DNA from: a virus
Lineage: Duplodnaviria > Heunggongvirae > Uroviricota > Caudoviricetes
Length of the DNA: 64,000 nucleotides
Direction: 5' to 3' (one strand)
IMG/VR virus record: IMGVR_UViG_2939521961_000004
Within the stretch, counting starts at the first letter, position 1; the number at the start of each line of letters is the position of its first letter. Made by a program: the position numbers. Positions 9,001 through 15,000 of this stretch are shown one piece after another.

Positions 9001-12000
9001 GCCGTGAATCCATGCGGGTATTTCATGGCGGCAGGGTGCTGGTGGAGTCTGAACCGAAAAGCATGCGTAATCTGCCGTCCGGGGTCGTTCCTGCCGTTCG
9101 CCAGCCGCTGGCGGAAGATAAATCATTACTGCCATTTTTCAGCAATGAGCGTGTGATTCGTGCTGCTGGTGGCGCTGGTGCACTGTCTGACTGGTTATTA
9201 CGTCACGTTAAATCCTGCCAGTGGCCTCATGGTGATTACCACCACAGCGAAACCGTCATACATCGTTACGGTACCGGCGCGATGGTGTTGTGCTGGCACT
9301 GCGACAACCAGCTGCGCGACCAGACATCCGAATCACTTGAGCAACTTGCTCAACAAAACCTGTCAGCATGGATGATTGACGTCATCCGCCACGCAATGAA
9401 TGGCACACAGGAACGGGAATTATCGCTGGCTGAATTATCCTGGTGGGCAGTCTGCAATCAGGTGGTGGACGCATTACCTGAGGCAGTATCGCGTCGTTCT
9501 CTGGGATTACCGGCGGAAAAAATCCGCTCCGTATACCGTGAAAGCGACATCATACCGGGAGAACAGACCGCCACCAGCATACTGAAGCAGCGCACAAAAA
9601 ATATTGCGCTACCGCCTCACACCCACCAGCAACAGAACCCACCACAGGAAAAGACGGTGGTCAGCATTGCCGTTGATCCGGAGTCTCCGGAATCCTTCAT
9701 GAAACGACCTAAACGTCGCCGCTGGGTAAATGAGAAATACACACGCTGGGTAAAGACACAGCCGTGTGCGTGTTGTGGTAAGCCAGCGGACGATCCTCAT
9801 CATCTGATTGGTCATGGTCAGGGTGGAATGGGAACAAAATCCCACGATATTTTCACGCTACCGCTGTGTCGGGAGCATCACAACGAGCTTCATGCGGATC
9901 CGCTGGCGTTCGAAGAAAAGCATGGTTCCCAGGTTGATTTAATTTTTCGTTTTCTTGATCACGCTTTTGCAACCGGCGTGCTCGGGTAAAAGAGGTTACT
10001 GATGCGTATAGAGTTTGTTTTGCCTTACCCGCCGACGGTGAACACCTACTGGCGACGTCGTGGCAGCACATATTTTGTATCAAAAGCCGGTGAGCGTTAT
10101 CGCCGGGCTGTGGCGCTTATTGTTCGCCAGCAGCGGCTGAAATTAAGCCTGTCCGGACGGCTGGCAATAAAAATTATTGCAGAACCACCGGATAAGCGCC
10201 GCCGTGACCTGGACAACATTCTGAAAGCACCGCTGGATGCGCTGACGCATGCGGAAGTGCTCATTGATGACGAGCAGTTTGATGAAATCAATATTGTGCG
10301 CGGTCAGCCTGTGCCAGGTGGACGGCTGGGCGTGAAGATTTACGAAATCAGAGGTGGTAACGATGGCGCGTGATATCCAGATGGTTCTTGAGCGATGGGG
10401 GGCATGGGCAGCAAATAATCATGAAGATGTAACATGGCCCTCGATAGCTGCTGGTTTTAAAGGATTAATCCCGACTAAAGTGAAATCACGTCCTCAGTGT
10501 TCTGATGATGACGCCATGATAATTTGTGGTTGTATGGCACGATTAAACAAGAATAATCAGTATTTGCACGATTTGTTGGTGGATTATTACGTAGGTGGAA
10601 TGACATTTATGGCTCTTGCACGTAAGCATAGATGTTCTGATGGGCTTATTGGTAAAAGGCTTTATAAAGCGGAAGGTATTATTGAAGGAATGCTTATGGC
10701 TCTGAATGTCCGGTTAGATATGGATATGCGGTAGGGATATATAGTGATGAGGGTTATGTTTTCTGTGTTTATAATTAACATGTTTATTTTTTGATGGTCA
10801 TGTATTGTGGAAGGTAGATAAAATGTTGCCTGGTGAATTGAAAATATTGATAATCAATCTTCATCATTAAATAAAAGGAGTGCTTATGTGGATTGTGTTA
10901 GTACTGTCACTGTCAACTCTCAGTTGGCATAAGGTAGTGGCTTTTTCATTGTTGACGGTGTCTGTTGTCCTGGCTGTGCTTAATGATATTATTGATTGGT
11001 CGGTGTTATTTTTTGTTGCTACAATCGTTTTTTTTATTATTTTGAAGTTCAACTGGAAATATAACGCCTGGGCTAAATCTATATATGAAGTTGGCATAGT
11101 TTTATCAGCCATAGCATTATCTTTCCATCTATGGCCAGGGTTTCACAATCCTGTAGTGCTAAATTCTGTTACTGTTGGCCCTCAGAGTACTCCCTATACA
11201 ATGTATTTTAATTTTGATAAAGCGCTGGTGCCATTTTTGTTAGTCCTGTGTACATCTTCTTTGTTTAAAAAAGAAGTAAAATCAGAAGTGTCTTTGTGGA
11301 AGTGGGGGGCTCTGTCGCTCTCTGTTCCTCTTATCCTGTTTTTGGCTGTTTTTTTTGGTGGATTAAAGCCAGAGATTCATTTTCCTGAGTGGTTGCCAGA
11401 GTTTATATTGGCTAATTTGTTTTTTGTGTCTCTGGCAGAGGAATCATTATTTAGAGGGTATATTCAATCACGGCTATCAGAAGTAACGTCTCCATTGGTT
11501 GCATTAATTGTGGCGGCTTTGTTGTTTGGTTTTTATCACTATTCAGGTGGTGCTTTACTTGTATTATTTGCCACGTTATCTGGTGTTGTGTATGGATTGT
11601 CATGGATGTGGAGTGGGCGTTTGTGGGTTGCCACCCTTTTCCATTTTGGTTTGAATCTGTGTCACTTGTTATTCTTTACCTATCCATTTTTAAAACATAA
11701 TTGATTTTTTCTATGGTTTTAAATTTATAAGACTGAAAAATAGCAGGACGTGACATTTGCATGAAAAATATGCACGGCAAAGCATTTACGTACGTAAAAA
11801 ATCAGGTATGCTGTTAAGAGTGGTTATTTCGCCGCATAGCTTGACCCCGCCTCTGAGCGGGTTTTTTGTGCCCGCAAAGTAGCGCAGTGCGTTAAATGTG
11901 CTGGTAGTTATTAATACAGGTCTTTCAGCTTGCTGGCTTTTTCGGCAAGAGTTATTGGTGTGTCACGTTAACCGGAAAGGGTAAAAAGACATGCTGAAAC

Positions 12001-15000
12001 AGCAGGATATGACAGAAACCGCCAGAGTTGTGTTTGATGAATTAAGCGTCACCGAACCGGCGACAGTCGGGGAGATTGCGCAGAATACTTACCTTTCACG
12101 CGAACGCTGCCAGTTAATACTGACCCAGCTTGTTATGGCGGGTCTGGCAGACTATCAGTGCGGTTGTTACAGACGCCTTCAGTCCTGAAGGCTTTTTTAT
12201 TTGTGGTAAATGGGCGGCTGGTGGGTGTTAGCGGCACCTGTCAGTCCTTTGCTTATGTGTTGATGATAATTTACCTTTTGGGGCTATAATTGAACTAACC
12301 AATTGCTAATGAAAGTAAAATTATAATGGTTGTTGTCTGTTCAGTTATCATGGTTTGCTCCCCAATTAATATTTTTCTTGAAAAGGATACGTTGTCACTT
12401 AAGCCCGGCTCAGTCGTTCTGGCCACCAAATGCATCAGGGCGCTTTTCCTTATGCATTATGGCAAAGTTAAAATTTTCGATATAAACCATTCCATAGTAA
12501 GTCAATATCTGGAAATTCAGCATAAGCTGACAAGAACTCATCTGACTGACGTTCCGCTTTATCTGTCACTGGAACCCAACAACCCTGCGTTGGCTGAGGC
12601 TTTAATTACCAGCCAGAGATTTTCCGGAGATACCACGGATATGTTTCTTATGATGGCATGCCTGTCGCTGTTTGAATCAGATGAACGGATATTATTATTT
12701 TTAAGTGGATGTTTATCCAGTATAAGTGCCAAAGTCAGGGCGATAATTCAGACAGATATATCAGCAAGCTGGACGCTTGGTGCGATTGCGTTACGCCTGC
12801 ATATGAGTGAGAGTTTGTTAAAGATAAAACTGAAAAATGAAGGGCACATGTTCAGTCGCTTGTTGCTGGAAGAGCGGATGCGTGTTGCTGTGAATATGTT
12901 ATGTTCCCGGCATGGATATGGACAGGCTGTAGCAGAAAAATGCGGTTATTCAAGCTGGTCCTACTTTATTTCTGTATTTCACCGCTATTATGGCTTCCCG
13001 CCAGACAGATATGTATCCAGGCAAGGGCTTGATTATTGATTTTCATCTGATTATTATTTTTTGACCCGGCCCTTTAGCTCAGTGGTGAGAGCGAGCGACT
13101 CATAATCGCCAGGTCGCTGGTTCAAATCCAGCAAGGGCCACCATCACATACCGCCATTAGCTCATCAGGAAAGAGCGCCAGCTTTCGAAGCTGGTTGCGC
13201 GGAGTTCGGGTCCCCGAAGGCGGTCCATTATCTGTATCCTGCGTTGTTAGCTCAGCCGGACAGAGCAATTGCCTTCTAAGCAATCGGTCACTGGTTCGAA
13301 TCCAGTACAACGCGCCACACTTATTTTCCCTGGCTCGCTTTTGCGGGCCTTTTTTTTAAATGTCTCACAATTCAGGCGGTTGACTGTTGTCTGGTTTGCG
13401 GGGAGTTTGTTAAAAGAAACTGGCATGGTGAATCCCCCTGTGCGGAGGGGCAATCAGCGAGTAGGTATATGGGATAATCGCGGATTCAGGTGCTGGTACT
13501 GAATTCACCGGGAGGCACCCGGCACCATGCAATGGCACATAGCGCCACTCTCCAGCCCCTCTCCGGAGGGGCTTTCTTATGGACAAAAAAAGCCCGCGCA
13601 GGGAGACGCGGGCGGCAAGGAATAAACAACAAAACGTGAAGTAATATTTCAGCTGGCGAATAATATCCGACAGTAATCACTCTGCGCAATAGCGCGGCCT
13701 TTTTCGTATTGCGGGCTGTTGTCTCTCTTCTGCCATTGTCCTGTAACTTCCGGACTTCAGCCCGCTCCTCATTTTACTCACAATATTATCCCGGCCGGGA
13801 GGATTCATGGCATTTAAACACTATGATGTTGTCAGGGCGGCGTCGCCGTCAGACCTTGCGGAAAAGCTGACACACAAACTGAAAGAGGGCTGGCAGCCAT
13901 ACGGCGGACCGGTTGCCATTACGCCGTACACACTGATGCAGGCGGTGGCTATTGAAGGAGATCCACAGGTCGGCCCTTCATCTGAGCCGGACTGGTTCTA
14001 CGTGGTTGTGCTTGCCGGACAGTCCAACGGCATGGCCTACGGTGAAGGGCTTCCGTTACCGGATTCTTACGATGCTCCGGATCCGCGCATTAAACAGCTG
14101 GCGCGCCGCAGCACGGTAACTCCGGGTGGAGAGAGTTGTACGTATAACGACATCATTCCGGCTGACCACTGCCTGCATGATGTGCAGGATATGAGTACGC
14201 TGAATCATCCGAAGGCAGACCTGAGCAAAGGGCAGTACGGCTGTGTCGGCCAGGGCTTACATATTGCCAAAAAACTGCTTCCGTATATCCCGAATAACGC
14301 GGGGATCCTGCTGGTACCATGCTGTCGTGGTGGTTCGGCATTTACCCAGGGCGCGGAGGGGACATTCAGTGCGGACACGGGGGCCAGCCAGGATTCGGCG
14401 CGCTGGGGTGTGGGTAAACCGTTATATCAGGACCTGATTGCGCGCACCAAAGCTGCATTACAGAAGAACCCGAAAAATGTGTTGCTGGCGGTGTGCTGGA
14501 TGCAGGGAGAGTTTGACATGAGCGCCGCCACCCACGCACAGCAACCTGCGCTGTTTACAGCCATGCTGACACAGTTTCGTGCTGACCTCTCCGTGTTTAA
14601 CGCGCAGTGCCATGGTGGCAGTGCTGCAGATGTGCCGTGGATTTGTGGTGACACGACGTATTACTGGAAAAATACATACGCTACCCAGTACGACACCGTG
14701 TACGGCGGGTATAAAAACAGGGAGAGTGAGGGCGTTTATTTTGTGCCCTTCATGACAGACGGTAACGGCGTCAATACCGCCACTAACGCGCCGGCAGAAG
14801 ATCCGGATATTCCGGCATCAGGATATTACGGTGCGGCATCGAGAACGAATGGAAACCAGGTATCATCAAACCGCCCGACACATTTCAGTTCATGGGCGCG
14901 CAGGAGCATTATTCCGGATCGTATGGCAACCGCTATTCTGAACGCAGCCGGGCGCACCTCAGCCTTCATCAGTGGTAAGGCACCGGAAATCAAACCCTCG

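Follow-up and report, generated by a model that had tools for sequence, protein, structure and literature searches.

PsrA and PsrB are reportedly AraC/XylS-family secretion regulators encoded on prophages, described by Tree et al. in 2011 and by Yang et al. in 2015 and summarised in reviews. They link prophage carriage to acid resistance and to the repression of type III secretion. According to those reviews, Psr activates gadE, yhiF and hdeA and indirectly represses type III secretion, the published psrA phenotypes stem from O157:H7 strains, and PsrB (Z2104, O-island 57 or OI-57) is 90% identical to PsrA (PMC10877973, PMC8565820); the name psrA was given to ecs1087, in prophage Sp4 of strain Sakai, in a 2026 paper of the Tree laboratory (PMC13502914). 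Two further systems are relevant here. The small ANR proteins bind AraC regulators, and one of them, Aar, has been suggested to impinge on the GadX regulon (PMC4983702, PMC4038620). The adenine methyltransferase M.EcoGII is reported to be silent in lysogens, how it is kept so being left open in the paper concerned, and to impair growth on overexpression (PMC5778455); phage 1720a-02 is said to carry a very similar enzyme (Murray et al. 2018, PMC5778455). We analyse here two loci, one in each of two prophages (copies A and B), in a 64,000-nt stretch of DNA of a Caudoviricetes virus (IMG/VR record IMGVR_UViG_2939521961_000004; the whole stretch is referred to as the window), in which a gene for a 65-aa protein precedes an AraC-type regulator gene.

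The preliminary description of the window reported this two-gene unit at 11991-13039 and 61318-62363, downstream of Q in both prophages and preceded by conserved sequence, and considered the regulators to be of the PatE/Psr kind and the small protein to be an unannotated partner, possibly a co-factor. The observation is correct, but it is one of already known genes: both pairs of open reading frames (ORFs) lie there on the + strand, Pfam recognises a Q gene upstream of each, and the 129 nt 5' of the small ORF are 86% identical between the copies. The assignment of the regulators has stood; the co-factor idea has not, since most copies of the small ORF are without psr, its usual neighbour is a methyltransferase gene, the two genes are separated by a predicted terminator, the copy beside an intact psrA carries a frameshift in O157:H7 and the small protein lacks the ANR signature. 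In our judgement the two loci are most probably known psrA/psrB-type genes that occupy a cargo slot at the start of the late operon, where a psr cassette would have replaced the methyltransferase gene and left the small ORF as a flank that is no partner of Psr. The most satisfactory account of the apparent "conserved pair" is that it arose as a side effect when a cassette was replaced in this phage cargo slot, not as a functional pair of regulator and co-factor, and it is unlikely that the small protein is dedicated to Psr.

Identity of the psr genes and extent of the cassette

Judged by sequence, copy A is a psrA-type and copy B a psrB-type gene, because the 237-aa product of the former is 100% identical to Sakai ECs1087 (in its 237-aa frame), that of the latter is 98.7% identical to ECs2191 of Sakai prophage Sp11, and the two copies (40 nt and 22 aa differences) are 90.8% identical to each other at the amino acid level, matching the published 90%; between ECs2191 and copy A the identity is likewise 90.8%. 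Sakai Sp4 has its genes in the order seen in copy A (DUF968, RusA, Q, CAAX protease, ECs1086, ECs1087, ileZ-argN-argO, esterase, pchA), and Sp11 in the order seen in copy B. In Sakai, psr is thus linked on lambdoid prophages to pch genes, namely pchA in Sp4 and, along with nleG2-3, nleG6-2 and nleG5-2, pchB in Sp11; in a related locus (L001) that is 99.6% identical to positions 5849-19100 of the window, a gene for a PerC-family regulator lies ~5.8 kb downstream of psrA. Because Sp11 carries these three nleG genes it presumably corresponds to OI-57, in which case Z2104 would be ECs2191.

Both AraC ORFs are intact and hence not the pseudogenes that the preliminary description had envisaged; the dN/dS between psrA and psrB is 0.44. 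The C-terminal double helix-turn-helix is present in both copies (PF12833, HTH_18, and PF00165, HTH_AraC, above Pfam gathering), its closest solved relatives being the GadX DNA-binding domain and Rns, and the NCBIfam YdeO model matches both proteins from end to end (positions 1-230, E about 1e-30), with scores below its equivalog cut-off. Compared with PatE (Z0321, OI-8), YdeO, GadX and AppY, they share the YdeO-like full-length architecture, a C-terminal domain closest to GadX structure 3mkl and, among published targets, gadE and hdeA. They differ in scoring below the equivalog cut-offs of both YdeO and GadX and in being only 37% identical to the PatE-like ECs0287, and PatE-like genes are found in another prophage slot. 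The low identity of ECs0287 and the lack of a small ORF near it rule out that the copies are PatE, so that a comparison with PatE- and Psr-type regulators, which the preliminary description had proposed, comes out in favour of Psr.

The context of Q, psr, ileZ-argN-argO, esterase gene, lysis genes and pch is likewise that of PsrA and PsrB in enterohaemorrhagic E. coli (EHEC) O157:H7, and nothing substantive differs beyond the host. Over the locus, EHEC genomes of O26, O111 and O145 match the window at 100% identity, which identifies the host, as far as sequence can, as a non-O157 EHEC-like strain. What the window adds is only that such a strain carries both the psrA and the psrB type; given the sequence identity, the published functions (activation of gadE/yhiF/hdeA and repression of type III secretion) should apply to both copies.

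The extent of the psr segment emerges from an alignment of psr-type loci with methyltransferase-type loci, in which a PF01555 methyltransferase gene follows the same small ORF. The two types share a stretch that begins at an upstream terminator (T1), passes through the small ORF and ends ~70 nt past its stop codon, where they diverge abruptly (left breakpoint ~12258); homology resumes 10-20 nt before ileZ. Between these junctions lie an AT-rich leader, the psrA ORF and a short 3' tail. The psr leader has a GC content of only 27% and the psr ORF one of 42-44%, compared with 51% for both the small ORF and the methyltransferase gene. The psr segment has the features of a late-operon "moron": a location between Q/tR' and the lysis genes, a distinct GC content, a predicted promoter of its own and, upstream, a predicted terminator (T2). 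We therefore regard psr as what appears to be a self-contained cargo ("moron") cassette, with the small ORF and the tRNA genes as conserved flanks. It can be described as a discrete, ~0.8 kb cassette with a predicted promoter, and its conserved flanks would explain how it spreads among prophages.

The distribution of the two components is markedly unequal. Among complete E. coli genomes, 2154 contain the small-ORF module (11865-12255), with 4663 occurrences, and 726 contain the psr segment (12259-13045), with 1325; in 725 genomes the two are joined. The module is thus ~3.5 times as widespread as psr, and ~72% of the E. coli small-ORF copies are without it. Outside E. coli, none of 21 species-representative loci has an AraC gene beside the small ORF; in 19 of them, from E. 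albertii to Proteus, a PF01555 methyltransferase (~350 aa, M.EcoGII-family adenine) is encoded ~150 nt 3' of it, and the remaining two have a truncated ORF and a contig end, respectively. A methyltransferase also follows the small ORF in 39 of the 40 phage records among the matches listed, and phiSTEC1575-Stx2k is the one phage record with the small-ORF-psr arrangement. The order small ORF, ~150 nt, PF01555 methyltransferase occurs in phiP27, SfV, Stx2a phage WGPS2, a Stx2c phage, mEp460 and a Providencia phage, as well as in E. coli ABU83972 and phage 1720a-02; in E. coli ATCC 25922 the small ORF is accompanied by neither psr nor the methyltransferase. The small ORF is thus not AraC-specific: most of its copies are without psr, and from E. 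coli as far as Proteus and Providencia its usual neighbour is the methyltransferase. When the window is set against the M.EcoGII-family locus, which in phage 1720a-02 consists of the small ORF, a 150-nt spacer and the methyltransferase gene after Q, its small ORF, upstream motif, T2 and first leader hairpin constitute the left half of that locus; the methyltransferase gene, however, is absent and psr stands in its place.

Within the window the unit is part of a duplicated block of 1499 nt (11859-13355 in copy A, 61186-62680 in copy B; 93.7% identity), a duplication far beyond chance. Its left edge lies directly 3' of a terminator-like hairpin, ~130 nt upstream of the small ORF, and it extends through the ileZ-argN-argO tRNA genes.

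Several candidate signals are conserved around the small ORF (Table 1). A GC hairpin with a T-run equivalent to T1 precedes it in nearly all related loci, and the stem of T2 (helix 1) has been kept by compensatory changes in other genera. A TAnnnT hexamer followed by GTTAAGAGTGG recurs upstream of T1 in loci with a PF06530-type Q, and we infer that it marks the late promoter region. Between the tR'-like terminator and the small ORF, all related loci have the motif TTGCTG-N11-12-CAGAGTTAT, more fully TTGCTG-N11-12-CAGAGTTAT(C/T)TG..TGTCA, which may be a weak promoter or an operator.

The following scheme would account for these data. The ancestral unit of the slot, conserved in phages of Enterobacterales, would have comprised Q, the late promoter, the tR'-like terminator, the 65-aa winged-helix gene, a terminator, a structured leader RNA of ~150 nt and the M.EcoGII-family adenine methyltransferase, usually followed by tRNAs, stx or lysis genes. 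Its methyltransferase and the 3' half of its leader RNA would, in the psr lineage, have given way to an AT-rich ~0.8 kb cassette with its own promoter-like site and a YdeO-like AraC gene; what would have remained as flanks are the winged-helix gene and the tRNA cluster, in which homologous recombination may move the cassette between prophages. In lysogens, late-promoter transcripts would end at T1 and transcription across the small ORF at T2, and psrA and psrB would be transcribed from their own promoters within AT-rich DNA. On the basis of the literature, the Psr proteins would act like YdeO on gadE and hdeA and thereby lower expression of the enterocyte effacement locus (LEE), a repression that is indirect. 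After induction, Q-modified RNA polymerase would run past T1 and on across the small gene, T2 and psr. In function, the small protein would go with the late operon and with the methyltransferase module, not with Psr. Prophage DNA of this AT-rich kind is described as silenced by H-NS/Hha, and the small RNA (sRNA) HnrS, which represses hha, is reported to up-regulate psrA indirectly (PMC13502914). The AT-rich composition of psr fits silencing of the H-NS/Hha type, and control of psrA may operate through relief from Hha. HnrS itself was considered as a component of this locus and rejected, since it is encoded in Sp9, Sp10 and Sp12 instead.

The 65-aa protein and its relation to Psr

The small ORF is a real gene of the late operon and is under purifying selection. 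Pairwise dN/dS values over eight copies are 0.05-0.28, and copies A and B differ by 5 nt and 2 aa (D16N, I29V). Homologues occur in Escherichia, Shigella, Salmonella, Klebsiella, Citrobacter and Buttiauxella, and more distant ones, at 44-50% amino acid identity but unchanged in length and position, come from phages mEp460 and cdtI and from phages of Providencia and Morganella. With such selection and such homologues it behaves as a protein-coding gene, not as the untranslated frame whose possibility the preliminary description had raised. A longer, GTG-initiated ORF of 106 aa that begins at 61195 in copy B is probably an artefact, because the homologous ATG and ribosome-binding site (RBS) of the 65-aa frame are conserved in all loci. 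The product matches phrog_331 (E 6e-37), and it is not strictly unannotated, as had been supposed: RefSeq has it as WP_000917737.1, either "hypothetical protein" or "TrmB family transcriptional regulator". The latter name rests on sub-threshold similarity, since the match to Pfam TrmB (PF01978; E 0.003) scores 17.8 bits against a cut-off of 25.6 and NCBIfam gives no match; the Pfam matches to TrmB, MarR and DprA_WH are all below gathering, and PADLOC gave no meaningful match. No report on the small ORF emerged from literature searches by locus tag (ECs1086, ECs2191, ECs2192 and others).

An AlphaFold2 model based on a 25-sequence alignment (mean pLDDT 73.7) has helices at residues 4-18, 26-32 and 37-49 and strands at 54-56 and 59-61, that is, three helices and a beta-hairpin wing, so that a winged-helix fold is predicted. 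The Foldseek matches of this model are all to winged-helix domains and are weak (best E 5e-3, TM up to 0.81), with no PDB match at E < 1e-3; sequence searches of the PDB gave at best an E of about 0.05 or worse. The protein resembles the TrmB/MarR winged-helix factors in weak sequence similarity and in its predicted H1-H2-H3-wing topology; it differs from them in having no dimerisation or ligand domain and in remaining below every Pfam gathering threshold. With respect to ANR/Aar (PMC4983702, PMC4038620), the likeness lies in a size below 10 kDa and in the host, an enteric pathogen in which AraC regulators tied to virulence also occur. The ANR signature, however, consists of A10, E14, A22, W26, A29, W43 and R47 on three alpha helices with no beta structure (PMC4983702). 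The 65-aa protein contains no tryptophan at all, and hence neither of the invariant W26 and W43, its predicted fold is a winged helix with a C-terminal beta hairpin in place of three helices, and its genomic partner is a methyltransferase and not an AraC gene; membership of ANR/Aar is ruled out by the missing tryptophans and the predicted hairpin.

Could the protein nevertheless be a dedicated partner of the regulator, either a co-activator or an anti-activator of the ANR/Aar type that binds Psr and so tunes acid resistance and type III secretion? In favour of this, the genes are direct neighbours on one strand and are conserved in both prophages, 726 of 727 psr-bearing records have the small ORF joined to one psr copy or more, and the ANR proteins provide a precedent for small proteins that bind AraC regulators. 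The association is one-way, however, as the prevalence of psr-less small ORFs in E. coli and the absence of psr beside them elsewhere make clear, and the conserved neighbour is the methyltransferase. Besides the missing ANR signature, a predicted terminator and a separate promoter-like site lie between the genes, and the small ORF is lacking near the PatE-like ECs0287 as well as near other AraC homologues of 37-40% identity (phages ev099 and 1H12). Moreover, a deletion of 1 nt at codon 49/50 shifts the frame of the small ORF beside psrA both in Sakai (ECs1086, L006:13344-13583) and in O157:H7 Z869 (L011:2627-2823), where the Prokaryotic Genome Annotation Pipeline flags the ORF as "frameshifted", and the psrA protein beside this frameshift is identical to copy A. 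On balance we hold a dedicated partnership to be very improbable, and advise against treating the apparent "operon partner" as a co-factor of Psr any further. Somewhat less improbable, although still unlikely, is that the 65-aa protein is a controller-like regulator of its own module and affects psr indirectly, through transcription from the TTGCTG...AGAGTTAT motif that partly passes T2. This would agree with the conservation of the motif between T1 and the small ORF in all genera, with the predicted winged-helix fold and with the intactness of the module in most psr loci, both window copies included. Set against it are the position of T2 and the first leader hairpin (P1) between the small ORF and psr, the better promoter-like site that psr itself possesses, the poor sigma-70 match of the motif, which the promoter scan did not flag, the dispensability of the small ORF in O157 Sp4 and the fact that DNA binding by the 65-aa protein is a prediction only. 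Least probable of all, to the point where we see almost no room for it, is that the small ORF is not a gene and that the region is kept only as DNA or RNA, for example as a recombination linker or within a late leader transcript. It is true that the non-coding flanks are also highly conserved and partly structured and that the ORF overlaps the T2 hairpin; against this stand the low dN/dS values, the retention of length and position in distant homologues, the phrog_331 match, the conserved RBS and ATG and a coherent predicted fold.

The preferred reading, that of a psr cassette between conserved flanks, has its own difficulties. The psr promoter and the terminators are only predicted, from consensus or fold. 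According to the reviews, PsrA is Z1789 of EDL933, located in OI-50 (PMC10877973, PMC8565820), yet in Sakai Sp6, the equivalent of OI-50 by its espK, espN and espX7, the interval from Q to the esterase gene lacks psr in the region checked (NC_002695.2 1541000-1590000, L008); a search of the Sakai prophages found psr in Sp4 and Sp11 and none in Sp6 or Sp10. The naming of the psr copies across strains is thus not fully settled, and strain differences or the naming itself may be the source of the discrepancy. With regard to the small ORF, the 726 of 727 records cited above make a retained role in cis or in trans possible by distribution alone, and the small ORFs beside psr still look constrained, though with only 2-6 substitutions per pair. 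Finally, the small ORF of Sakai Sp11 (ECs2192) is intact and could act in trans, which weakens the argument from the O157 frameshift and leaves that evidence suggestive.

The leader RNA and the methyltransferase module

The spacer of 150 nt that separates small ORF and methyltransferase gene in the methyltransferase-type loci is more conserved across genera than the small ORF itself and folds into T2 followed by a three-way junction. In an alignment of 23 leader sequences 94% of the cells pair, compared to 29-49% when the partners are slid, and 11 pairs show double changes, compared to 3.6 +/- 1.3 in shuffled alignments, none of 500 shuffles reaching the observed value; one base pair occurs as CG, AU and UA. 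Examples of this structured RNA of ~150 nt, whose fold the covariation supports and which is kept from E. coli as far as Proteus, are L002:3185-3360, L004:3180-3356 and L036:3185-3352, and its remnants in the window lie at 12175-12261 and 61502-61585. The psr loci retain only T2 and the first hairpin. No Rfam 15 family matched the methyltransferase leader at E <= 1 in five loci, and at gathering Rfam has nothing in 11850-13040 or 61180-62365 of the window. A leader peptide, encoded by a seven-codon ORF (MGGWWVL), was rejected, since the codons change in Proteus while the base pairing stays.

It is tempting to speculate, albeit quite tentatively, that the winged-helix protein and the ~150-nt structured RNA make up a control module dedicated to the toxic, non-specific M.EcoGII-family methyltransferase, and that the orphaned protein and half-leader could give psrA and psrB a control that depends on the state of the phage. 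In such a module the 65-aa protein could bind either the upstream DNA motif or the leader RNA and so confine methylation to the lytic phase. Neither the small ORF nor the leader RNA is mentioned in the M.EcoGII paper (PMC5778455). The displaced module of winged-helix gene, leader RNA and methyltransferase is uncharacterised and bears on how a growth-impairing methyltransferase is silenced in lysogens; it is a worthwhile side lead.

Features of the two loci and their surroundings

Table 1. Positions of the genes and predicted signals of copies A and B in the window.
Feature	Position	Strand	Basis or remark
Antiterminator Q gene, copy A (126 aa)	10354..10734	+	Pfam PF06530 Phage_antitermQ, E 4.9e-52
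CPBP/CAAX-type intramembrane protease gene, copy A only	10880..11704	+	Pfam PF02517 Rce1-like, E 1.4e-19; RefSeq CPBP family endopeptidase
Putative late-promoter (PR'-like) -10 element TATGCT, then conserved GTTAAGAGTGG, copy A	11807..11823	+	below scan threshold
T1, tR'-like intrinsic terminator (predicted), copy A	11846..11867	+	terminator scan; fold -9.1 kcal/mol
Motif TTGCTG-N11-12-CAGAGTTAT upstream of small ORF, copy A	11929..11973	+	conserved from E. coli to Proteus and Providencia
65-aa winged-helix (predicted) protein gene, copy A	11991..12188	+	phrog_331; RefSeq WP_000917737.1
T2, intrinsic terminator (predicted) overlapping small-ORF stop codon, copy A	12175..12197	+	scan; fold -10.5 kcal/mol, z -3.1
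P1 hairpin, remnant 5' half of structured leader RNA, copy A	12210..12261	+	alignments; fold -20 kcal/mol, z -2.6; covariation
psr cassette, copy A	12259..13057	+	segment not common to methyltransferase-type loci
Sigma-70-like promoter site ATGATA-16-TATAAT, upstream of psrA	12263..12290	+	10/12 consensus matches; best in region
psrA-type AraC/XylS regulator gene, copy A (237 aa)	12326..13039	+	Pfam HTH_18, HTH_AraC
ileZ-argN-argO tRNA cluster, copy A	13068..13317	+	ARAGORN, Rfam; right flank common to psr-type and methyltransferase-type loci
Q-like gene, copy B (DUF1133/Phage_antitermQ)	60534..61076	+	Pfam PF06576 E 1e-110, PF06530 E 1.4e-8
T1, strong terminator (predicted) directly after Q-like gene, copy B	61173..61194	+	fold -17.6 kcal/mol, z -5.2
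Motif TTGCTG...AGAGTTAT, copy B	61256..61300	+	equivalent of copy A motif
65-aa winged-helix (predicted) protein gene, copy B	61318..61515	+	homologous ATG and RBS kept in all related loci
T2 (predicted), copy B	61502..61524	+	terminator scan
P1 hairpin, degenerate remnant, copy B	61536..61585	+	fold z only -0.3
psrB promoter-like site ATGATA-16-TATAAT, copy B	61587..61614	+	identical to copy A site; consensus match
psrB-type AraC/XylS regulator gene, copy B (237 aa)	61650..62363	+	
ileZ-argN-argO tRNA cluster, copy B	62392..62643	+	tRNA prediction

The two loci differ upstream of the pair. In copy A the CPBP/CAAX protease gene, which lies between Q and the putative late promoter and corresponds to ECs1085 of Sakai Sp4, separates Q from the small ORF and psrA; in copy B the Q-like gene is directly adjacent, upstream of the small ORF and psrB. 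In phiP27 a GIY-YIG nuclease gene is found where copy A has the protease gene, and this looks like a second variable slot. Further upstream, both prophages share a second block (9000-10348 and 59179-60524; 90% identity) in the DUF968-RusA region, which precedes two different types of Q and is an example of lambdoid mosaicism.

Downstream, copy B has an ORF of 167 aa (62741-63244) after the tRNAs, a gene that copy A lacks; its position is occupied by a TerB/TciA-like gene in Sakai Sp11 and in ABU83972. In both prophages an Rfam match to the STnc100 sRNA (138 and 105 bits) lies 3' of the tRNA cluster, at 13394-13584 and 63413-63585. Other Rfam matches in the window are the sok antitoxin RNA (8168-8342), which adjoins the RefSeq gene hokD, the ALIL pseudoknot of an IS3-family element (43872-43988) and the DicF sRNA (48602-48653, - strand).

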